24,000 nt of DNA from Deltaproteobacteria bacterium. GTDB lineage: Bacteria > Desulfobacterota > Desulfarculia > Adiutricales > JAGVGV01. The position numbers and the translations under genes were made by a program. Under the pieces are notes generated by a model, which did not search any database, was not told the origin of the DNA, and worked only from the letters and a program-made list of their open reading frames with translations. Where the stretch lies: NCBI GenBank assembly GCA_020056895.1, contig JAGVGV010000387.1, positions 1 through 24,000 on the forward strand, given 5' to 3'. The stretch's first letter is position 1. Every line of letters begins with the position of its first letter. Shown here one piece after another: positions 2,702-18,522 of this stretch.

Positions 2702-3310
2702 ATGTCAGGAAAAAATATGGTGCTAAAAATATTTTTAAAGATAAAACAATTGTATACGTTCCATGTATTATTTTGTCGAGAATATGAGAATGATCTTGAC
2801 GAAATTTTTTTGGCAATATTCAATCAAAGACTCAGGTTAGGTCTAATTAGATGGGGGATGAAAATTGAAGAATATGATGTGAATTTTATTAAATTCTCGC
2901 CAGCCTCTCTATTTCTTAGATCATCGTCTAATCCCTTGGTTGGTGTCTGGTCAGGGGTTATTTATATAAGTTACAATGGTAGGACAATTAAAATTGATGC
3001 GGACTTAAATTGTTGTGAAATTATTTTTGTCATGTTAGGTATTTTAGTGGTATTTTCTAAAGGAGTTTATGAATTAGGAAATGGGAAACTTAACCCTTTT
3101 TGGGTAGTATTCATCCCAACAATTGTATCTATAATGACGTATATAATCGATAAGGTACTCAAAAAATCGTACTATCGTGCTTTTTTTCAGAAGCAATGGC
3201 ATATGACCGTAAAAGACTATAAGAAACGGAAAGAAGACACCTTGAAGAACCAAGAAAAAAAAGATTCCAAATGTCGTGAACGACTTGAGGATTTTTTTTT
3301 ACCATGGTAA
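2702..3310 (+). CDS. Candidate cognate immunity protein of the RHS tip (202 aa, two predicted TM helices)
   Basis: It lies 24 nt downstream of the RHS stop on the same strand and shares the low GC (~35%) of the toxin tip. Hydrophobic helices are EIIFVMLGILVVF and FWVVFIPTIVSIMTYII. No recognisable family motif. The function is inferred from position only. Confidence 0.55.
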   Translation: MSGKNMVLKIFLKIKQLYTFHVLFCREYENDLDEIFLAIFNQRLRLGLIRWGMKIEEYDVNFIKFSPASLFLRSSSNPLVGVWSGVIYISYNGRTIKIDADLNCCEIIFVMLGILVVFSKGVYELGNGKLNPFWVVFIPTIVSIMTYIIDKVLKKSYYRAFFQKQWHMTVKDYKKRKEDTLKNQEKKDSKCRERLEDFFLPW

Positions 3311-3955: not shown

Positions 3956-4738
3956 TTAGGCTGAAGGGGCAAGGATCAGCCCCAACACCTGCTCGACCTC
4001 GGACAATACCCGCATGCAGGCCGTCAGAGGGGACATGCCCGCCTTTTCGGCATAGCCCTCGATGTAGCGGTAGGAGTTGCCCAAGGTGTTCTTGGCCTCC
4101 TTGCCTACCATCCGGCACAGGGCCTGGGCGGACAGTTCGGCCACGATCTCCTGAAAGGGGTCCTGACCTGGTCGAAGGCGCCCCTTGACCTTCGCATGCG
4201 CGGCATGGGCCAATTCATGGAAAAAGACCGCTTCCTCCTGGCTGGCCAAGGCGATTTCTTTCCGGCCGGCCGAATAATACCCAAGGTATCGATAGTTCCC
4301 GGGCACGGCCTTCACGCCGATCCCCCACTCTTTGGCCTTTTCCATAAGGGGTAGATCAGGAACCTCGATCTGGCGATACGCCAGTTCTTGACCCTCGGTC
4401 TGCTCGTAAGCGAATACTGCTTTGACTCCGAACCCTGTGAGGAACCTAGCCTCCTCCTCTGTTTCTTCCTCCTGCCGTTTCTTGAAAAATGGCACGAGGA
4501 TGAAGATTCGGGCTTTCTCCCCTTTCTTGACGTACCGGCCGGCTTCGGTCCATTGCCGGAACCCCCTGGCGTCGGACGTTCCACCGATAAACATCAGAGT
4601 GCGGTTGAGCAGGGACCAGTTGGCCGAAGGGATGTCGTTGGCCGTCGGGAACATCGAATAGGCAACCGTTTCCGGAATGTCCCCGCTTTTGAACTGGCTA
4701 AGGATAGAAGTCAGGGCTGCATTGATTCGTGCGTCCAT
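3956..4738 (-). CDS. ardC: ArdC-like antirestriction protein (ssDNA-binding N-domain plus zincin HExxH metallopeptidase domain)
   Basis: The N-terminal pattern ANWSLLNRTLMF..FRQWTEAGRYVKKGEKARIFILVP resembles the ArdC/DUF1738 ssDNA-binding domain. The C-terminal part has FFHELAHAAH (HExxH). A GGAGG SD lies at 4743-4747. Confidence 0.72.
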   Translation of the reverse strand: MDARINAALTSILSQFKSGDIPETVAYSMFPTANDIPSANWSLLNRTLMFIGGTSDARGFRQWTEAGRYVKKGEKARIFILVPFFKKRQEEETEEEARFLTGFGVKAVFAYEQTEGQELAYRQIEVPDLPLMEKAKEWGIGVKAVPGNYRYLGYYSAGRKEIALASQEEAVFFHELAHAAHAKVKGRLRPGQDPFQEIVAELSAQALCRMVGKEAKNTLGNSYRYIEGYAEKAGMSPLTACMRVLSEVEQVLGLILAPSA

Positions 4739-4771
4739 AGTACCTCCGTGGCGGCGGTGGAATGAATTGAG

Positions 4772-4924
4772 GGCCAGACCGCCTTACCGGCCGACTCGTT
4801 CAGGGGCCAGCGCCAGGGAGCCCAAAGCAGTCACAGGTGTGGGCAATCCCGAAGGGTTGTCCATCGCCTTGACGGCTTAAGGGCTGGCGCTACACTGAAA
4901 GAGGTCGGCCAGGTGCGGTTGGCT
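4772..4924 (+). promoter_or_regulatory. Rod-like imperfect hairpin element (copy 1) carrying TTGACG-N16-TACACT in its 3' arm; candidate ssDNA (Frpo-like) promoter or structured leader for ardC
   Basis: Paired segments are GGCCGAC(4789-4795)/GTCGGCC(4904-4910), GCGCCA(4810-4815)/TGGCGC(4885-4890), GTCAcAGG(4830-4837)/CCTTGAC(4867-4873), and an apex CAAtCCC-gaa-GGGTTG. The -35 is TTGACG at 4869-4874 and the -10 is TACACT at 4891-4896. It is a paralog of 11467-11703, with compensatory stem changes between the two. Confidence 0.55.
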
Positions 4925-4983
4925 CGTTGGTTTGGGATTGAAAAAGACTATTTGAGGACTAGGCTTTATCCGCCTGGGCGATC

Positions 4984-4995
4984 GTTGCTTGCAAC
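4984..4995. promoter_or_regulatory. Operator-like palindrome GTTGCTTGCAAC (member of the GTTKC-NN-GMAAC family), upstream of the ardC leader
   Basis: A perfect 5-2-5 palindrome. It belongs to the same 12-bp family found at 12787-12818, 13352-13430 and 14793-14823. On the minus strand it overlaps a possible TTGCAA -35, with GATAAA about 18 nt downstream. Confidence 0.4.
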
Positions 4996-5019
4996 TGATA
5001 CTATAAAAATGCGCACATC

Positions 5020-5052
5020 ATATAAAACAGCCAACCGGTTGAGGGCTGGCTG
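5020..5052 (-). terminator. Probable rho-independent terminator after Uma2 gene 1
   Basis: The minus-strand RNA has a stem CAGCCA/TGGCTG (5052-5047 / 5033-5028) followed by TTTTATA. Confidence 0.45.
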
Positions 5053-5088
5053 AGGTTCGGCGGCGATCATTTCCCCAGAGAACGGCGG

Positions 5089-5655
5089 TTAATCCCCCCA
5101 CCAGAGATTGGCCAGATCGATTTCCACCTCTTGAAACGGCTCGACCCGGACTTTGTCCTTTTCGGAGTAATTCCCCATAACCACCCAAGCGCCGTCCTTC
5201 AGCTTGAAGGCCTCCAGAAGCCTGTTGAGGGGGTCAATAAGCCAGAGGTATGAGACGTTGTGCGCGGCGTAGATGGGCATTTTGCGCACTCGGTCGATCC
5301 GAAAAGTACTTGGGGACAGAATTTCGCAGACCCAATCGGGCACGACGGTTGTCCAATTGCCTACTGGCGGCGCCGGCAAGCGTTCCTGCCTCCAGCCGGC
5401 CAAGTCCGGCACAAGCAGGTTCTCGCCCAGCATTATCTCCACGTCAATAAGGATAATCCACCCACCAGGACCGCCATGCTTCCCGAATTGATACGGCGGC
5501 TTCAATTCGCTTCCTATCGCACTCACGGCATTTGAATGCCGGTAATGCGGTTTGGGGAAGGCATGCAGTTCGCCTTCGATGATCTCGCCGGTCATGTTCT
5601 CCGGCAGGTTATACAGGTCGTCATAGACGGCCTTGCGTTTGGCTGGCATGGACAT
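5089..5655 (-). CDS. Uma2-family (DUF820) PD-(D/E)xK endonuclease, paralog 1
   Basis: Family-typical motifs are present: GEIIEGELHAFPKPHYRHS, GGWIILIDVEIMLGENLLVPDLAGW, PDWVCEILSPST. It is roughly two-thirds identical by eye to the ORF at 17923-18498. Confidence 0.85.
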   Translation of the reverse strand: MSMPAKRKAVYDDLYNLPENMTGEIIEGELHAFPKPHYRHSNAVSAIGSELKPPYQFGKHGGPGGWIILIDVEIMLGENLLVPDLAGWRQERLPAPPVGNWTTVVPDWVCEILSPSTFRIDRVRKMPIYAAHNVSYLWLIDPLNRLLEAFKLKDGAWVVMGNYSEKDKVRVEPFQEVEIDLANLWWGD

Positions 5656-5783
5656 GAAGGCCTCCTTCCCGGGTGACGATAGACGATCAGGCCTATCGCC
5701 TTGTTAATGAACGAAAAACCTAACGATCTTATAAGTCCGGATCATCCTCCTTGAGCATAAACATATCTCCTTAGATTTATTAA

Positions 5784-5836: not shown

Positions 5837-7087
5837 CTAGCACCGGAACCAGCAATCCCTCAGAAAAGTGCCCGCCGGGGTCGCTGGATCACCGTCAAAC
5901 GCCTTGCCCGAGCCGTTTTTTTCCTTTGCCCGTCCGTCCGCCTCCTTCTCTCCTGCCTCATGTTGTCCGCCCGCTTTGACTTTGGGCGGCGGGAAGGTCA
6001 GCACCTTATGAGCGGCCTTCCCGATCTGGACGTACGCTTCGTACGGGCTCAGCTTGAGGAAGGCTTCAGGGCGGAGCTGATATTCCTCGGCCATACGCCG
6101 GGCCTCGGCCGACCCGCAGTTGAAAACCACCTTGGCGTAGCAGTTCCCCAGGATGGCCGACAGAGTTTCCTTGGAAATTTGCAAGTGGCTCTGATGAGCC
6201 AGGGTCAGGCTGATATTGAACTTCCTAGCCTGGGCGAGCATTACGTCGAAAAACTCGGTGACGAAACTCTGAAACTCGTCCACGTACAGGAAAAGAGGCG
6301 GCGAGTCCGGGGTCGCCTGGTAGTGGAAATAGGACTTGATGGCATGGGTGACCAGGTTGCCCAGGTACACGATGGCTTCGGACCCGAGCCCGAACAGATT
6401 GAAGACCACGATCCGCCTGGCCCGGGCGATCCCGGCGATATCGAGCTGGTTCGGGCCGATCAGAAATGGCCGCAGGCTCTCGTCCTCGTAAAAAGCCGAC
6501 AGCCGGGCCCCTACCCGCTTGGCCCCGTCGATCTTTTCCTTGCTCACGAGCTGCCTGGTCTTGGGGTCCCGGTCGTCGAAGTATTGCCAGTACACCGGCG
6601 GCGTCCGGGTTTCGAAGTACTTGCGCCGAACCGGTTCGTAATTGAGGAAATCCGCCACTTCCTTGATGTCCAACCGGTCGGCCGGCAGGGCCAGGACCGC
6701 GTTCCGAATCAGCTCCTTGTGGAGAATGGTGGTTTCCTGGGTGGACGTGGTCGCCCGGACGCAGGCGTTGATCACCTCGCCCAGTTCGCTGGCAAGCTGG
6801 GATTTGGTCAGTCCCGCCCGATCCAAGGGGTTGATGACGATCGGATGATCCTTGTCCACGTAGGTCAGCCGGCCGGCCGGAGCCAAAGCGGCCACGGCCT
6901 CGGCCAGGCTGCCCACGGGATCGAGGACGATCACGGCGTGCCGCCGTTCCTGAACGAACAAATTGGCCAGAAACGTGGTCTTGCCGGTGCCCGTGGCCCC
7001 CAGGACATAAAGGTGCCGAAACCTCGCCCTGGGGTCGAGAACGGCCAGGCCCTCCCTGGCCACCAGCGGCACGCCGAGATCGATCAC
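5837..7087 (-). CDS. VirD4/TraD-like (type IV coupling protein-like) P-loop ATPase lacking an N-terminal TM anchor
   Basis: Walker A is GATGTGKTT and Walker B-like is LFLYVDEFQSF. TLAHQSHLQI matches the TraG-D_C-type QS..Q pattern. The GTG start overlaps the upstream stop (GTGA at 7084-7087). Confidence 0.78.
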   Translation of the reverse strand: MIDLGVPLVAREGLAVLDPRARFRHLYVLGATGTGKTTFLANLFVQERRHAVIVLDPVGSLAEAVAALAPAGRLTYVDKDHPIVINPLDRAGLTKSQLASELGEVINACVRATTSTQETTILHKELIRNAVLALPADRLDIKEVADFLNYEPVRRKYFETRTPPVYWQYFDDRDPKTRQLVSKEKIDGAKRVGARLSAFYEDESLRPFLIGPNQLDIAGIARARRIVVFNLFGLGSEAIVYLGNLVTHAIKSYFHYQATPDSPPLFLYVDEFQSFVTEFFDVMLAQARKFNISLTLAHQSHLQISKETLSAILGNCYAKVVFNCGSAEARRMAEEYQLRPEAFLKLSPYEAYVQIGKAAHKVLTFPPPKVKAGGQHEAGEKEADGRAKEKNGSGKAFDGDPATPAGTFLRDCWFRC

Positions 7088-9592: not shown

Positions 9593-9903
9593 GGCTTTGT
9601 AAACCCCGCCAACCCCTCCTCTTCACCTTCCGGATTAAATCCCTTCTTCCCTGACCCTTCCCGCTCACGCGCCCTCGGGGCGCGGCCGCTTGCCGGCCTG
9701 CCTCCTTCCTTGGCTCCCGCCGCTCCTCCTCACCTCCTGGTGTTCTCCACGCCGCCTAAAAGGCGCATATCAACTCACGCCCTTCCTTCGGGGCGCCCGA
9801 GCACGCCGCCGGCGCACCCTTCGAAGATTTCCCGGGCGCAACTTTGTCCCCCCGTTTCAAACCGGGCATTTTTAAGGTGGTTTACCCGGCAAATACTTTT
9901 TTT

Positions 9904-9992
9904 AATATTCGTAAAGAGAAGTAAGTAAAAGTTGCCTGTCCGTCTTCGACCGGCCGAATACTTCTCTTTACGCATATTCAAAAGAAGTATTC
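9904..9992. repeat. Nested inverted repeats in an ORF-free region (oriT candidate)
   Basis: AATATTCGTAAAGAGAAGTA (9904-9923) pairs with TACTTCTCTTTACGCATATT (9959-9978) at 19 of 20 positions. GAATACTTCT (9956-9965) pairs with AGAAGTATTC (9983-9992). Confidence 0.6.
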
Positions 9993-10239
9993 AGGCCACA
10001 GCGTGCTAACCTGGTCTACACATCTAAAGCTTGCGAGCTATTACACTCCTTTCGCCGATGTATCACTGGCCCCAGTGATGTATCAAGAACGGAGCAATAT
10101 TCACTATGGCGTTGAAATTTCAAGCGGAGAAAATTGTAGTCTTGACTTTTTTCTTTCCGTTTATCCTCCTAGAAAAAAGTCATAGTCTCAATTTTTGGAG
10201 CGCGGAAACTTTCAAGAGTCCTTTATAAAAAGTCCGCAC

Positions 10240-10280
10240 AAAAAAAGGCCCCCTCTCCGCTTTCACGGTGAAGAGGCCCT
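10240..10280 (-). terminator. Probable rho-independent terminator after the 129-aa ORF
   Basis: The minus-strand RNA has a 9-bp stem GGCCUCUUC/GAGGGGGCC (two G-U pairs) followed by a run of 7 T. Confidence 0.45.
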
Positions 10281-10298
10281 TTCATTTTCCTGATCCAT

Positions 10299-10688
10299 TT
10301 ACTTCGCTTTCATGACGGCTGCGTCGTGTTCTTCTTTTAGCCCGTTATACTTCTTGAATCGGTCAAAGCGGTAGATGCTGACATAGCCGCTCATCGCCGT
10401 ATCCAACCGTCTGAATTCGTCTTTGATGTAGTTCGTATCCAGCTTCAAACTGCTTACTTCCTGCTCGGTCATATCAACTTTAACGATTATTCTTTCCAGC
10501 CGGCTGTCAATTCTGCTCATGTGATTATCCATTCTTTTGTCCAGCCGCTCGACTTCACTTTTCATTACGACCGCCAGTTCGTCAATCGCGTTATTCAAGC
10601 TACTTTCCACCCGGGCCGCTTCACTTTTAATCAAGGCAGCCAAATCATCAAGTGTAATTGGCTTTTGTTCTTTGTTGTTTTGAGTCAT
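10299..10688 (-). CDS. Small coiled-coil protein (129 aa), unknown function, low-GC
   Basis: An uninterrupted ORF with heptad-like E/K/R/L/D-rich sequence, followed by a terminator. No family motif recognised. Confidence 0.55.
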   Translation of the reverse strand: MTQNNKEQKPITLDDLAALIKSEAARVESSLNNAIDELAVVMKSEVERLDKRMDNHMSRIDSRLERIIVKVDMTEQEVSSLKLDTNYIKDEFRRLDTAMSGYVSIYRFDRFKKYNGLKEEHDAAVMKAK

Positions 10689-10748
10689 ATTATTATCGTT
10701 TAGTGAATAAAACTTCTACCTTCAGGATAGGAAAAATAACGGGCTTTG

Positions 10749-11240
10749 TCAATTCACCCGTTTTTCCTCATTGCCGTCTAGGTATGTTATCGCGGGTTTG
10801 CAGGAAAGATAGGATCCATCCGGCGCGACGATCACATGATCGGTCAGCTGAATGCCCAGAAGCTTGCCAGCGTCCGCGATCCGCCGAGTCAGCTCCAGAT
10901 CGGCCTCGGACGGCTCGACATCCCCGGACGGATGGTTATGCGCCAGGATGATGCTCGCCGCGTTCCGAAGAATCGCCGCCTTGAACACCTCGCGCGGGTG
11001 CACCAGGCAGGCGCTCAGGGTCCCGACCGCGACCAATTGCTGCCCCACCACCCGGTTTCTGGCGTCCAAGAGCAGACAGACCATGTTTTCCCGATCCGAA
11101 TCGGCGAAGGCTTTCATCCGGCAAGCCACGTCCTGGGCGCACGTCACGTTCTCGTACCGGGCCTCCGAGTCCTTGACCAGCTCCAGCCGGTAGACCGGCA
11201 CCCGGAGCGTTCGGTTTGTTTTCTTCATAGAGGTTTTCAT
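10749..11240 (-). CDS. radC: RadC-like JAB/MPN domain protein
   Basis: The JAMM motif ILAHNHPSGDVEPSEADLELT and the RadC-like core VVGQQLVAVGTLSACLVHPREVFKAAI are present. Confidence 0.9.
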   Translation of the reverse strand: MKTSMKKTNRTLRVPVYRLELVKDSEARYENVTCAQDVACRMKAFADSDRENMVCLLLDARNRVVGQQLVAVGTLSACLVHPREVFKAAILRNAASIILAHNHPSGDVEPSEADLELTRRIADAGKLLGIQLTDHVIVAPDGSYLSCKPAITYLDGNEEKRVN

Positions 11241-11244
11241 AGGG

Positions 11245-11430
11245 CTACCGCCTCGAGATCGAAACGATGCTCCACTCGGGCTGAGTGTGCGCCACGAATG
11301 AATGCAGGCAGTCCTCGGCTCGACCTTTTATATCCCGGGACCCCTCGCCTTCTTCGGCATAAGTCAGGACCAGCTCCTTGACCTTCGCGCCGTTTTCCAG
11401 CCGGATTCGATACTCTTGGTTGTTCGTCAT
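11245..11430 (-). CDS. Hypothetical 61-aa protein upstream of radC (orf61)
   Basis: The ATG is at 11430 and the stop lies 4 nt before the radC ATG. The composition is non-repetitive and protein-like, but the SD is weak. Confidence 0.4.
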   Translation of the reverse strand: MTNNQEYRIRLENGAKVKELVLTYAEEGEGSRDIKGRAEDCLHSFVAHTQPEWSIVSISRR

Positions 11431-11466: not shown

Positions 11467-11703
11467 GGCCAGGCCGTCTTACCGTCCGCCTGATTCCCCT
11501 GATGCGGCAGGGAGCCCAGGTTCGGTCAAGGTGTGGGTAACCGGCGGAGCGGAAGTCAGCCCGCCTTTACGGGTTCTTCGGCCTAAAGCCAAGGTTCAGT
11601 CAAGGCGGAATAGATGACTGGAGCGGAGCCGGTTATCCATCGCCTTGACGGGTTCTGGGCCGCCGCTACAATGGAAGAAGGCGGACGGTAAGACGGCCCC
11701 CGC
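11467..11703 (+). promoter_or_regulatory. Hairpin element copy 2 with TTGACG-N16-TACAAT in the 3' arm; candidate ssDNA promoter for orf61-radC and/or duplex promoter for the primase gene
   Basis: The outer stem is a perfect 19 bp (11472-11490 with 11680-11698). GTCAAGG (11525-11531) pairs with CCTTGAC (11643-11649). TAACCGG/CCGGTTA closes a ~95-nt insertion within the 111-nt apical domain. The -35 is at 11645-11650 and the -10 at 11667-11672. Blocks are conserved with copy 1 (CAGGGAGCCCA, GGTGTGGG, TCCATCGCCTTGACGG, CGCTACA). Confidence 0.55.
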
Positions 11704-13803: not shown

Positions 13804-14778
13804 TCAATCAAGAATACTTAAAGCCTTGTCGTCCCGGCCGTTTCGCCAGAAATCGCCCAGGATCGCCGCGCCGTTCCTGGGATCGATCCGGGACTCGGGC
13901 GCGAAATAGAAGAGCCGGGTGCCTTTGCCCCGTTCGTCCACTTCCTTGTTGGCCTTGACCAGGTTGGCCACCCGCCCCGGCAAACGGGTCACGGTCAGGA
14001 CCCGGAAACCGTCCAGCCCCAGCGCTTTCCTGGCCGCGCCGTCCCGGGCCGTGGCCCAATACCCGAGCATTTTCTTGAAATAGGCGCTCCGCCGGAAATC
14101 CGCGTGGCTGAAGATCGGCTCGCTGCCGGTGTCCGCTTCGAGGAAAAAGTAGTCCCGCCGCTTGCCCGGCCATTTGCCCGGGTCATAGTCCAAGGCGAAG
14201 AATCCGTCCGGGTTCAGGGCCATGGTCAGGTCCTGGTTGTTGCGCCGGATCGTCACCGGCCATTTGATCCGGGTCTGGTGTCGGCGGCAGCGGGCCACGG
14301 CTTCCCCCGACAGGCTGGCCAGGAGTTCGGGCTCTTCCACCAGACGCACCCCGCCGATTTTGGCCAGGCCCGTTCGCAAGGCCACGAAAAAACCGGCGAC
14401 CATGAGCTGGTGGCTGACGAAATTATCCTTGGCGGCCCGGTTGTTCCGCGCCCAGTCGATCCGCCGGCGGACGGCCAGGCCCCGTTCCACCAGGCAGGCG
14501 TACCCGGCTTGGCCGAGAAAATAAACCAGCGGCCGGGAACCGCCGCCCGGCACGAATTCCTTGAACTGGCCCGGCCAGCGGTCGAGGTACCCGGCGTTGA
14601 ACAGGAGCATGAGCCGACGGCGCAGATTGGTGGGGCTGCCGCCCAGAAGGGCCAGGATGTGGTCGGAGTTCAGGGCGCGGTAGGAAAGGACTTCGCGCAT
14701 GATCCGGAGATCGCGGTCAGTGAGTTGGAACGGCCCGACGGCCGTGCGGGTGGCCAGGGGCCGGGATTTTTTGGGCAT
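13804..14778 (-). CDS. Replication-relaxation family (Replic_Relax) protein
   Basis: The family pattern is present: LTDRDLRIMREVLSYRALNSDHILALL..RRRLMLLFNAGYLDR (wHTH), SHQLMVAGFFVAL, and NPDGFFALDY..YFFLEADTGSEP. Confidence 0.8.
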   Translation of the reverse strand: MPKKSRPLATRTAVGPFQLTDRDLRIMREVLSYRALNSDHILALLGGSPTNLRRRLMLLFNAGYLDRWPGQFKEFVPGGGSRPLVYFLGQAGYACLVERGLAVRRRIDWARNNRAAKDNFVSHQLMVAGFFVALRTGLAKIGGVRLVEEPELLASLSGEAVARCRRHQTRIKWPVTIRRNNQDLTMALNPDGFFALDYDPGKWPGKRRDYFFLEADTGSEPIFSHADFRRSAYFKKMLGYWATARDGAARKALGLDGFRVLTVTRLPGRVANLVKANKEVDERGKGTRLFYFAPESRIDPRNGAAILGDFWRNGRDDKALSILD

Positions 14779-16149: not shown

Positions 16150-16375
16150 AGGGTGCGAAATGCGACATCCTTGGGACGAACTACGACAACTTTGGGACGA
16201 AATGCGACTATTTTGGGATGAAAAATGGGTGAAATGCGACAGTTTTGGGACGAAATGCGACTATGGTATGGAATTGTCGTATTTGGTTCAAATGCGACAG
16301 TTTTGGGACGAGTGAAATGAAAAAACGGTATGGCGATGATATGCGACAATGGCATTGACTAATCGCATTTCATTG
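16150..16375. repeat. Iteron array of a theta-type origin (oriV)
   Basis: The core AAATGCGAC occurs at 16158, 16200, 16232, 16253 and 16290. Two perfect 18-mers TTTGGGACGAAATGCGAC lie at 16191-16208 and 16244-16261. Degenerate copies are at 16171-16187, 16302-16319 and 16341-16349. Inverted copies are at 16276-16284 and 16363-16370. The array sits directly upstream of the rep gene. Confidence 0.8.
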
Positions 16376-16411: not shown

Positions 16412-17887
16412 ATGTTTAATAAAACAAACGCATCCAAGGGGGGTGATTTCATCCTTACCATTGAAACCCTGAAAAAAATCGAAGACGGCCACAAGGTGGT
16501 AACCGGCAATGACCTCATTATCAAGGCCCAATTGCCGGTTTTAACTGTGCAAGAGCAGCGGCTTGTCTTGTATATGCTGGCCATGGTGGAACAGCATGAT
16601 GAAGACTTCAAGACCTATGCGATCTCCATAAAAGAGTTGAAAAAGGTGTTAGAAGTCACTAGCCAGAATATCTATAAGGAGTTTGAAAAAGCCACGGATG
16701 GCTTAATGACCAAATTGATAAAGTGGATAGAAGCACCCTACACTGAAGACGAGGAATTAAAAAAAGTGGCCTGGTGCTCGTTTGCCGGGGTACGGCGCGG
16801 CTTGGTCAAGCTTCGCTTCGACCCAGCTTTGAAACCATTCCTCCTCGATCTTAAGAATAATTTTACACAAATGGAATTACGGGCGGTTATAAGGCTCAAA
16901 AATCATTATTCGCTAAGGCTCTACCAGTTTATCAAGTATTGGCAAGGGCATTATAAAAGCAACTCAGCGGCTGTTCAAATTGACTGGCTAAAGCAATATT
17001 TAGGAATTCTGCCGACCGAATACACCCGGTTTAATGATTTTATAAAAAAACTAATAATACCGGCCCAGAAAAATATTGCTGAAGTAACCGATATTCAATT
17101 TACCTTTGAAGCCAAAAAGGAACCAGGGAATCGCAAGCATACCCAAATTGAGTTTACTTGGGAAAAGAACCCCCGGTACAATCAACTTTCCCTATTTACC
17201 CCGGAAATGGAACGGCAGTTTTTAAGACAGGAGAGCGAAGCGGAAGGCGGTATTTCACTGGATCAACCGCCTATCGAATTCGATAACCCGCTCGCCAATG
17301 ATCTAATCGCCGCCACGCAAATCGGCTCAGAAAAGGCCTTGAAGCTGCTATCCCTTCATGGTGAAGAGATTATAAAAACAGCGATTGAGGATTTGAAAAT
17401 CATCATCGCGGTGAAAAAGGAACGTGGCGAGGATATGCCCAATCCAGCCGGTTATTTTCAATCATTGCTACCCAAAAAAGGAGAAAAATACCAGCCATCA
17501 AATTACTATCTTTTGCATAAAAAAAAGGAACAAGAAGAAAAACGAAGAAAAGAGAAAGAAGAAAAAGCCAGGCAAGAAGCGGAAAAAGTCAGACGGGAAG
17601 AATGGCTTAAAAGACAGTATGAAGCGTATATTGACAGCGGAATCGCAACCTTTAAAGCTACGCTTTCCGCCGAAGAATTAAGCGACTCTGAACAACGGGC
17701 AAAAGAAGAAGTTGATAAAATGGATGGTATAGAAAACCTCCGCCGTTTTGGAGTTGAAAAGACATTTATAAAAAGCAAATTGAACCAAATTATTCGGGAA
17801 AAAGCCGGGCTTCCTTCCTTCGAAGAATGGCAAAAACAAGTAGCTCAAAATAACAAGACAAAGAAGGCTATGAAAAACCCCAATTAA
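16412..17887 (+). CDS. Rep_3-type (RepB/RepE/pi-like) plasmid replication initiator with a long C-terminal extension
   Basis: N-terminal family pattern: GNDLIIKAQLPVLTVQEQRLVLYMLAMV..DFKTYAISIKELKKVL and LKNHYSLRLYQFIKYW. Iterons lie upstream. At 491 aa it has a K/E-rich coiled C-terminal half. Confidence 0.82.
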   Translation: MFNKTNASKGGDFILTIETLKKIEDGHKVVTGNDLIIKAQLPVLTVQEQRLVLYMLAMVEQHDEDFKTYAISIKELKKVLEVTSQNIYKEFEKATDGLMTKLIKWIEAPYTEDEELKKVAWCSFAGVRRGLVKLRFDPALKPFLLDLKNNFTQMELRAVIRLKNHYSLRLYQFIKYWQGHYKSNSAAVQIDWLKQYLGILPTEYTRFNDFIKKLIIPAQKNIAEVTDIQFTFEAKKEPGNRKHTQIEFTWEKNPRYNQLSLFTPEMERQFLRQESEAEGGISLDQPPIEFDNPLANDLIAATQIGSEKALKLLSLHGEEIIKTAIEDLKIIIAVKKERGEDMPNPAGYFQSLLPKKGEKYQPSNYYLLHKKKEQEEKRRKEKEEKARQEAEKVRREEWLKRQYEAYIDSGIATFKATLSAEELSDSEQRAKEEVDKMDGIENLRRFGVEKTFIKSKLNQIIREKAGLPSFEEWQKQVAQNNKTKKAMKNPN

Positions 17888-17922: not shown

Positions 17923-18498
17923 TCAGCTTTCCTCCTCTTCCAGCCACATATCGGCCAAATTGATTTCGACCTCGGCGAACGGTTCAGCCCGAACGCGGTC
18001 GTGTTCTCCATATAAACCGATAGCGACCCAACGGCTGCTTTCCAAACGGTAAACTTCCAGGGTTCTATCCACCGGATCGAGCAACCAGATGTATTGGACC
18101 TCAAACCGGCCATATACCGGCATCTTCTTGATCCGGTCATAACCCCGGGTGTTGGGTGACAGAATCTCGCAAACCCAGTCGGGTGGGACGGTCGTCCAGT
18201 TCTTTTTGGGCAACTTGGGCAAGCGCTCTTTTTTCCAGCCGGCCAAGTCCGGCACGAGCAGATTTTCGCCCAACATCACTTCTGGTTCTATCAGGATGAT
18301 CCACCCGCCCGGGCCGCCACCCCGGCCAAAGCGATACGGCGGAGCTAATTCTCCGCTTAAGGCGGATTCGATGTTGCTGTGGCGGTAATGCGGTCGAGGG
18401 AAAGCGTGCAGTTCGCCATCAATAATCTCGCCCGTCATGTTTGGCGGTAGCTTATAAAGGTCATCATAGACAGCCTCCCTTTTTTCTGGCAGGGACAT
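17923..18498 (-). CDS. Uma2-family (DUF820) endonuclease, paralog 2
   Basis: Same motif set as 5089-5655: GEIIDGELHAFPRPHYRHS, GGWIILIEPEVMLGENLLVPDLAGW, PDWVCEILSPNT. An AGGAGG SD is present. Confidence 0.85.
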   Translation of the reverse strand: MSLPEKREAVYDDLYKLPPNMTGEIIDGELHAFPRPHYRHSNIESALSGELAPPYRFGRGGGPGGWIILIEPEVMLGENLLVPDLAGWKKERLPKLPKKNWTTVPPDWVCEILSPNTRGYDRIKKMPVYGRFEVQYIWLLDPVDRTLEVYRLESSRWVAIGLYGEHDRVRAEPFAEVEINLADMWLEEEES

Positions 18499-18522
18499 GT
18501 TCTCCTCCTTTCCAAGGAGTCA

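Follow-up and report, generated by a model that had tools for sequence, protein, structure and literature searches.

Hairpins upstream of ArdC-like and other genes as a putative family of compact single-stranded DNA promoters

Introduction

Single-stranded DNA (ssDNA) promoters account for the expression of anti-defence genes by incoming plasmids that have yet to become double-stranded. To our knowledge, experimental work on them has so far been confined to enterobacterial plasmids of the F and I1 incompatibility groups, and the usual way to find more is a BLAST search with those few sequences. In the F plasmid, Frpo1 and Frpo2 were shown experimentally to drive genes of the leading region (PMC9849209), and the same logic was proposed for anti-defence islands generally (PMC11541004). 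Here we analyze a hairpin that carries promoter hexamers and lies just upstream of an ArdC-like gene, in a stretch of 24,000 nucleotides (nt) from a deltaproteobacterium (contig JAGVGV010000387.1) that we call the window. An earlier reading of the window (the original prediction) had proposed this hairpin, which we call copy 1, as a candidate ssDNA promoter and had counted two copies. We will argue that both probably belong to a new and compact family of ssDNA promoters, which would be Frpo-like in its action and is not homologous to Frpo.

The closest described systems share much with this family. Frpo1 and Frpo2 (ssp1a/b) and ssp2 of F, and ssi3 of ColIb-P9, are likewise imperfect hairpins on the template strand in which a -35 and a -10 are rebuilt. 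They too lie directly upstream of establishment or anti-defence genes and occur in several co-oriented copies, and their template strand folds better. Samuel et al. 2024 (Nature 635:186, PMC11541004) also reported candidates, which are non-homologous hairpins with a -35 and a -10, upstream of anti-defence genes and on the transferred strand. Candidate ssDNA promoters have been described in Serratia, Salmonella, an insect-gut metagenome, and Streptococcus pneumoniae. In the literature that we searched, the described ssDNA promoters were Frpo1/2 and ssp2 of F, ssi of ColIb-P9, and these candidates, and none of them is the family that we describe here.

Results

A hairpin upstream of ardC rebuilds a promoter

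Positions 4772-4924 form a long imperfect hairpin, as originally predicted. As ssDNA, the + strand folds with an energy of -51.8 kcal/mol, versus a mean of -28.3 for dinucleotide shuffles (z = -8.46; 0 of 200 shuffles were as good), and the complement of this segment folds more weakly (-45.1 kcal/mol with DNA parameters). When we scanned both strands of 4650-5150 for matches to the sigma-70 consensus, we found a single site, TTGACG and TACACT with 16 nt between them, on the + strand and in the 3' arm of the hairpin. This is where the original prediction had placed it, and the -35 is base-paired within the stem, as it had also claimed. (Coordinates of this and other features are in Table 1.)

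The original prediction also placed the -10 in a pre-melted bubble, and this stands in part. In the minimum free energy (MFE) fold of copy 1, A4892 (position -11) and A4894 are unpaired, but T4891 and C4893 are paired, and C4895-T4896, which includes T-7, is within a weak 5-bp helix (CTGAA/TTCAG). A fully open -10 bubble is cleaner in most of the relatives that we describe below than in copy 1.

The geometry is right for transcription that leaves the base of the hairpin leftward, into the Shine-Dalgarno (SD) sequence and ardC, which was another claim of the original prediction. The 3' arm would be the non-template strand, the 5' arm would be the template, and the leader would be about 57 nt. 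On the + strand, the SD appears as its complement CCTCC (4743-4747) and the start codon as CAT (4736-4738), with 33 nt between the latter and the hairpin base. The open reading frame (ORF) at 3956-4738(-) matches ArdcN, the N-terminal domain of ArdC. It has thousands of homologues, many of which are named ArdC, and the closest ones are from Desulfobacterota genomes and sediment-type metagenomes.

In duplex DNA, the same hexamers would fire rightward, as predicted. In that direction copy 1 faces the 3' end of a convergent gene, which encodes a Uma2 protein (5089-5655(-)). The terminator-like hairpin after Uma2 would insulate ardC from read-through, and the consensus scan found no sense-strand sigma-70-like promoter between this terminator and ardC (within 4650-5150).

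The outermost 3' part of the hairpin (4903-4924) can also form a small stem of its own, and a T-rich run comes next (GGTCGGCC..GGTTGGCT CGTTGGTTTG). Such an arrangement could stop a rightward duplex transcript almost immediately, or it may be there by chance.

Table 1. Features of the window that are discussed in the text
Feature	Position	Strand	Evidence or comment
Hairpin copy 1, entire imperfect stem-loop	4772..4924	+	DNA fold and R1 covariance model
-35 hexamer TTGACG	4869..4874	+	Paired with GTCAC-AGG of the 5' arm
-10 hexamer TACACT	4891..4896	+	Partly unpaired in copy 1; 16-nt spacer from the -35
5'-arm (template) stretch opposite the -10 and its upstream flank	4798..4814	+	Poorly complementary; unconserved in the family (0.03-0.84 bits)
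Unpaired GGG bulge in the template arm, facing the spacer	4816..4818	+	Conserved in the family
Predicted transcription start in the template arm, opposite the positions 6-8 nt past the -10	4795..4797	-	Pairing in copy 1 and usual sigma-70 spacing
SD GGAGG (4743-4747), start codon (4736-4738), and ArdC-like gene with HExxH	3956..4747	-	Pfam ArdcN; homologues named ArdC
Small stem-loop between the main hairpin and the SD	4753..4783	.	GGCGG 4753-4757 with CCGCC 4779-4783; loop of ~21 nt
Terminator-like hairpin with T-run after Uma2	5028..5052	-	Separates Uma2 from copy 1
Type IV coupling-protein-like ATPase	5837..7087	-	TrwB_AAD_bind and TraG-D_C matches
Operon downstream of copy 2: 61-aa ORF (11245-11430), RadC (10749-11240), 129-aa ORF (10299-10688)	10245..11430	-	
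Terminator-like hairpin closing the RadC operon	~10247-10282		
Hairpin copy 2	11472..11698	+	Inverted repeat I1; apical insert of ~80 nt
Replic_Relax (PF13814, MOBC-type) relaxase	13804..14778	-	Marks the replicon as mobilisable
Five iterons of ~21 bp (GGGACGAAATGCGACA...), upstream of the Rep_3 initiator gene (16412-17887)	16152..16311		

Relatives with the same architecture in other phyla

We ran a profile search with copy 1 over 80 ArdC loci from a genome collection. It gave matches in genome bins of Ignavibacteria and Latescibacterota that were weak but in the right place, immediately before ArdC homologues and in the same relative orientation. We also scanned metagenomes with a pattern for just the 5' arm (GGGAGCCC-N6-GTCANAGGTG), which leaves the -10 as an independent test. 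About one quarter of the 80 matches to this pattern were real hairpins, and all of those had TTGAC(T/G), 16 nt, and then TAnAnT in the 3' arm.

From 19 trimmed sequences we built a covariance model, R1, for which the structure was supplied from the folds of each sequence. (MAFFT and RNAalifold on the untrimmed hairpins gave 11 pairs only, because the variable outer stems were misaligned.) R1 had 31 matches, of which 25 were distinct, with scores of 45-120 bits, in Ignavibacteria, Latescibacterota, and uncultured metagenome contigs; one further match was in an IMG/VR contig. R1 matches copy 1 at 4784-4915 with 89 bits. The search with a covariance model, which the original prediction had proposed, turned up 25 distinct homologues with the same architecture and with downstream ORFs on the opposite strand. 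They have in common a paired -35, a spacer of typically 16 nt, a mostly unpaired TAnAnT, and a closing stem.

The promoter hexamers are conserved. In an alignment of the 19 sequences, the T, T, and A of the -35 TT(G/T)A and the T, A, A, and T of the -10 TAnAnT are invariant. Across 23 to 25 distinct homologues, these four bases of the -10 have few exceptions or none. In the model alignment of 25 sequences, the -35 columns T, T, G, A have 2.0, 2.0, 1.6, and 2.0 bits, and the six -10 columns have 2.0, 2.0, 0.4, 1.7, 1.2, and 2.0 bits, while the template side of the internal loop, opposite the -10, has just 0.03-0.84 bits. The GGG bulge (columns 36-38 of alignment A4) is present in 19 to 23 of the 25 distinct members, and two of the columns that it spans have 1.6-1.75 bits. 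The 3' arm has a conserved AA as well, within the spacer. Among the 22 members that we measured, the spacer is 16 nt in 18 and 19-20 nt in 4, and the -35 is paired in every one. Beyond its first T, the -10 is wholly within an internal loop of 9-14 nt in 11 of the 22 and is weakly or partly paired in the rest.

The original prediction had held that the complementary 5' arm, and not the hexamers alone, is conserved, and compensatory changes in the stems of the homologues bear this out. Of the 42 stem pairs, 30 have changed on both sides, and in the outer stem the changes were compensatory for 11 of 11 pairs. Stem cells are paired 85% of the time, versus 67% if the columns are shuffled (0 of 500 shuffles equalled this), and the covariation score is 0.38, versus at most 0.10 if the partners are slid by 1-3 columns. 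The alignment was fitted to R1, which favours the structure, so these values should be read with that caveat.

The small stem-loop between the main hairpin and the SD is also present in most members. Across relatives the stem is 3-6 bp and covaries, so that the stem sequences differ and the pairing is kept (GCGG/CCGC, GACGG/CCGTC, or CAG/CTG), and the loop, of about 20 nt, has an A/T-rich end, for example TTTATTA. In copy 1, the right half of this stem-loop can alternatively lengthen the outer stem of the main hairpin.

Two copies per locus are found in the window and in loci L134, L138, L141, L142, and L145, and wherever there are two, they are co-oriented. Locus L276 has tandem hairpins (2556-2680 and 2757-2880), about 200 nt apart and on the same strand, and of these, only the left one (2556-2680) has a downstream ORF at the usual distance. 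ArdC loci without the family (L121-L129, L133, L135, L139, and L140) mostly have a short G+C-rich hairpin next to a run of A or T, within about 30-60 nt of the SD. The 15-mer CCATCGCCTTGACGG has at least 120 matches in viral contigs, and by a later profile run over all loci, none of these is a member of the family.

The strand with the promoter arm folds better

The original prediction called for the + strand to be folded with DNA parameters. The + strand beats its complement in the window, and the strand with the promoter arm beats its complement in 22 of 22 homologues, with a mean margin of 3.9 kcal/mol. With RNA parameters, the same strand folds better as well (20 of the 20 tested). As a positive control, we folded regions of the F plasmid, and the energies of the better strand and of its complement were -123.7 and -114.1 kcal/mol for Frpo1, -119.6 and -111.7 for Frpo2, and -112.2 and -105.1 for ssp2.

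The asymmetry is also visible in the mismatches. In the MFE folds, the strand with the promoter arm has 52 G:T pairs and 0 A:C single mismatches, while the complement has 11 G:T and 11 A:C. In the model alignment, the counts are 55 G:T versus 26 A:C, or 50 versus 14 without helix 2, which is poorly registered. One wobble pair is conserved: it is G:T in 18 of the 25 sequences and G:C in the other 7. Given the asymmetry in folding and these counts, the sense-strand RNA (a 5' untranslated region) is not the species that folds.

This bears on another explanation, which is that the element is a structured RNA, either in the 5' untranslated region on the sense strand of ardC or as an antisense RNA from the + strand. 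The radC motif reportedly lies near radC and antirestriction genes, a context that resembles this one. The hairpin is directly upstream of the SD, and the covariation, taken alone, would fit an RNA. But the sense strand folds worse in every member and has A:C where the other strand has G:T. Also, a search of Rfam (cmscan, E ≤ 10) with the two copies and seven relatives, on both strands, found neither radC nor STAXI (the two models that the original prediction had singled out) and gave chance matches only, and a scan of the window at Rfam's gathering threshold gave no match. We did consider a match to the DUF3085 RNA (4848-4918(-), 15 bits), which recurred in none of the seven relatives. Furthermore, our scans found neither a sense promoter upstream of the hairpin nor a + strand promoter on its left side, and if the element were a structured RNA, it would be unexplained why TTGAC-16-TAnAnT is more conserved than anything else. 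The radC and STAXI RNAs have a similar neighbourhood, but the strand that folds here is antisense and is not the mRNA. We rejected the minus-strand RNA leader that the original prediction had offered as its alternative, and we consider a structured RNA of either kind to be very improbable.

Overall, one strand of the element forms a stable hairpin in which a -35 and a -10 at sigma-70 spacing are rebuilt in a pseudo-duplex, and this is kept in 25 homologues. The strand that folds is the template of the downstream gene, as seen in the asymmetry (22 of 22) and in the ORFs on the opposite strand. As far as computation goes, the interpretation as an ssDNA promoter is supported.

Genes on either side of the hairpins

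All complete members have an ORF on the strand opposite to the promoter arm, with a start codon that, in nearly all of them, lies 40-52 nt past the base of the hairpin. In nine members, including the window, this ORF encodes an ArdC-like protein. Other members have a DUF932 protein (L241), a YopX protein, or one of several families of small proteins. Judging by their families, the downstream genes are of the establishment or anti-defence type. In F, ygeB, which is downstream of Frpo1, is a DUF932 protein as well.

In the direction in which the hexamers would fire in duplex DNA, the arrangement is looser. For 10 of 20 members, the first 400 nt hold no such ORF; for the other members, the distance to the ORF ranges between 24 and 380 nt. 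This is relevant because the hexamers could be an ordinary, rightward duplex promoter within a palindrome that serves as an operator or terminator. The hexamers are good (9 or 10 of 12 consensus positions match), some relatives do have a co-oriented ORF, and copy 2 aims at a primase gene 88 nt away. But copy 1 would fire into a convergent gene, at its 3' end, and a duplex promoter leaves unexplained the 30 compensatory pairs, the G:T-only asymmetry, and the conserved mismatch opposite the -10. As an account of the family, an ordinary duplex promoter is quite unlikely; for the copies with a co-oriented ORF, ordinary duplex use of the hexamers may occur besides.

Copy 2 and the RadC operon

The predicted second copy is present, upstream of an operon of small ORFs and RadC. 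Its DNA fold has -78.4 kcal/mol (z = -9.06), its R1 score is 64 bits, and the promoter scan located its hexamers at 11645-11650 (-35, TTGACG) and 11667-11672 (-10, TACAAT), with a 16-nt spacer. Between the primase gene and the 61-aa ORF, the consensus scan found no sense-strand sigma-70-like promoter. In duplex DNA the hexamers of copy 2 point rightward to the DnaG-like primase gene (11781), whose start codon is 88 nt past the hairpin, so this sequence might serve the primase as a conventional promoter and the RadC operon as an ssDNA promoter. In its apical insert (11540-11625), copy 2 has a partial duplicate of the 5'-arm motif (GTTCAGTCAAGGCGG, compare GTTCGGTCAAGGTGTGG), which suggests an internal duplication.

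The proximity of copy 2 to a primase gene also fits another explanation, that the hairpins are priming sites for complementary-strand synthesis, akin to sso elements (single-strand origins), the minus-strand origin of filamentous phages, or the primer role of Frpo. Such a site would yield a short primer and not an mRNA. In rolling-circle plasmids and ICEBs1, ssoA, ssoU, and ssoT are promoter-mimicking ssDNA hairpins that recruit the host RNA polymerase in a strand-specific manner, as does the minus-strand origin of filamentous phages. The fold, the strand specificity, and the hexamers would be the same. Frpo itself was reportedly first described with both promoter and primer roles, judging by the title of Masai and Arai's 1997 article. 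In F, transcription from ssDNA promoters reportedly contributes to strand conversion.

Still, sso elements make short primers and are not coupled to an ORF, while the family here has a constant link to a start codon. A priming site has no need for a fixed distance of 40-52 nt, or a fixed orientation, relative to a start codon, and nearly every member has both. Nor does priming account for several co-oriented copies per element, each before its own gene. We rejected an ssoA-type origin in particular, which would have conserved RSB and CS-6 elements on a rolling-circle plasmid: the replicon is of the iteron/Rep_3 type and not rolling-circle, and the CS-6 sequence of ssoA (TAGCGT) is found only in the variable outer stem of one subgroup and is missing from the copies in the window. 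We consider priming as the main role to be unlikely, and it would be compatible with the elements being ssDNA promoters.

Comparison with other elements

Although the proposed action is that of Frpo, the sequences are not related. Samuel et al. (2024) assigned elements to the Frpo/ssi family by homology (BLAST E < 1e-6 to known Frpo/ssi). When we compared 4740-4940 to the 72,556 plasmids in PLSDB with blastn (word size 11), there was no match, and neither a family hidden Markov model (with nhmmer) nor R1 had a match in the leading region of F (52000-67500). So by homology, the hairpins do not belong to the Frpo/ssi family, and the "Frpo-like" label of the original prediction holds for the mechanism but not for sequence homology, for which blastn, the profile, and the covariance model were all null.

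The elements also differ in form. Those of the family are about 110-160 nt, as compared to about 300-330 nt for Frpo/ssp, and have a highly stereotyped core, with canonical hexamers, the GGG bulge, and a mostly open -10. The hosts are in other phyla, and the relaxase is MOBC instead of the MOBF or MOBP of the Frpo/ssi systems. Whereas the candidates of Samuel et al. came from inspecting hexamers and structure in four islands and then BLAST (PMC11541004), the family here is described by a covariance model and by covariation across phyla. It appears to be a previously undescribed family that is present in several bacterial phyla.

We also considered structures for recombination or mobility, such as an attC-like site of an integron, a miniature inverted-repeat element, or an origin of transfer (oriT). 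In cassette arrays, attC sites are imperfect palindromes that fold as ssDNA and lie just upstream of ORFs, and the hairpins here also fold on the template strand and lie directly upstream of ORFs. But their interior is conserved and their stem base is variable, which is the reverse of attC, and they have no RYYYAAC/GTTRRRY boxes. There is also no integrase among the ORFs of the window, and we rejected an integron attC on these grounds. The copies are not scattered but at orthologous positions before specific genes in different phyla, and two co-oriented copies that are 6.8 kb apart are unlikely to both be oriT. We view this whole group of explanations as extremely improbable.

A proposed mechanism and the points against it

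Most likely, the promoter activity of copy 1 is limited to the time after conjugation when the plasmid is single-stranded. How it would do so, including the binding of RNA polymerase, the start site, the transferred strand, and the timing, we infer as follows. When the + strand is single-stranded, most plausibly because it is the strand delivered by conjugation, 4772-4924 would snap into the hairpin. The 3' arm, with TTGACG and TACACT, would then be the non-template strand of a pseudo-duplex in which the -35 and the spacer are paired and the -10 is in a mismatched, open, or weakly paired region, so that little or no melting would be needed. The host's sigma-70 holoenzyme would bind and start about 7 nt past the -10 (opposite 4795-4797), with the 5' arm as the template. 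The polymerase would unwind the closing stem and exit the hairpin base leftward, to make an mRNA whose leader of about 57 nt carries the small stem-loop and the SD, followed by the ArdC-like ORF. Synthesis of the complementary strand would destroy the hairpin, the hexamers would then face the other way, and the promoter would be off. The expression of ardC would thereby be confined to the single-stranded phase. Copy 2 would have the same role for the operon of the 61-aa ORF and RadC.

Several observations weigh against the proposal that these are ssDNA promoters. The -10 of copy 1 is partly paired, T-7 included. The typical spacer of 16 nt is one below the optimum, and in 4 of 22 members it is 19-20 nt. 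About half of the members have an ORF in the duplex firing direction, such as the primase gene at 88 nt from copy 2. Of the 24 close ArdC loci from the genome collection that we examined, 17 do not have the element. By analogy with the related Bacteroidota, it may be that canonical sigma-70 hexamers are not used in Ignavibacteria. Finally, in the window and in L138, the hairpins are downstream of the relaxase gene, and with an oriT just upstream of this gene, they would enter the recipient late rather than first. Late entry is compatible with the proposed function, because the whole strand arrives single-stranded, but it would weaken the label of "leading region." In L283, by contrast, the hairpin and the genes that it would drive are upstream of the relaxase gene, at a distance of about 1.8 kb, and these genes are oriented toward it, which resembles how the leading genes of F point to oriT and fits a leading position.

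A more speculative extension, which we doubt, is that the hairpin is a strand-state switch. It would be the sole promoter of its genes, firing leftward as ssDNA and the opposite way as duplex (for copy 2, into the primase gene). If so, the leftward anti-restriction or establishment genes would be silent in the resident duplex plasmid, and one sequence would program two transcription units that are temporally exclusive.

The replicon and candidate transfer origins

The window looks like a mobilisable plasmid. PF13814 is the MobC family of relaxases (PMC5357655), and a MOBC relaxase and a coupling-protein-like ATPase surround the hairpins in the window, in L138, and in L283. The genes for replication and partition are a Rep_3 initiator, ParA, and ParB, and the iterons together with Rep_3 appear to be a typical theta-replication origin. 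Other genes in the window encode the DnaG-like primase, two Uma2 proteins, an RHS protein, and a type III restriction helicase. We found nothing that resembles the window in PLSDB.

We noticed some inverted repeats that might be related to transfer. An A/T-rich intergenic region in the window (9899-10298) has inverted repeats at 9899-9923/9959-9983 (92% complementary) and 10130-10154/10171-10195, as well as a repeated GATGTATCA around 10058-10086. This region is a candidate for oriT or for a regulatory region. L138 (around 6330-6500) and L134 (around 6200-6300) share a long inverted repeat (GTGGCTATT...GGACAGCAAACCC / GGGTTTGCTGTCC...AATAGCCAC), which is directly upstream of the Replic_Relax gene and at the edge of the integrated element, so it is possibly oriT or an attachment site.

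The two Uma2 genes, 5089-5655(-) and 17923-18498(-), have diverged from each other and share 73-78% nucleotide identity as direct repeats (5312-5670 and 18155-18513) that are 12,843 bp apart. In the gene for the RHS-repeat protein (48-2678), the 3' end has a low G+C content, as does the next ORF, 2702-3310 (0.38-0.44, versus about 0.57 elsewhere). This is how an exchanged toxin tip with its immunity gene typically appears.

Implications

If these hairpins are ssDNA promoters, then the presence of the family in Ignavibacteria, Latescibacterota, and Desulfobacterota-like elements would show that the strategy is ancient or convergent across phyla. The family would also give mechanistic studies a minimal and stereotyped architecture, which consists of a -35 in duplex form, a spacer with a bulge, an open -10, and a closing stem. 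A searchable model such as R1 could be used to annotate these elements and to infer the transferred strand of uncultured conjugative (MOBC) elements, and a model that works across phyla would be the first general detector of ssDNA promoters outside of the Enterobacteria.

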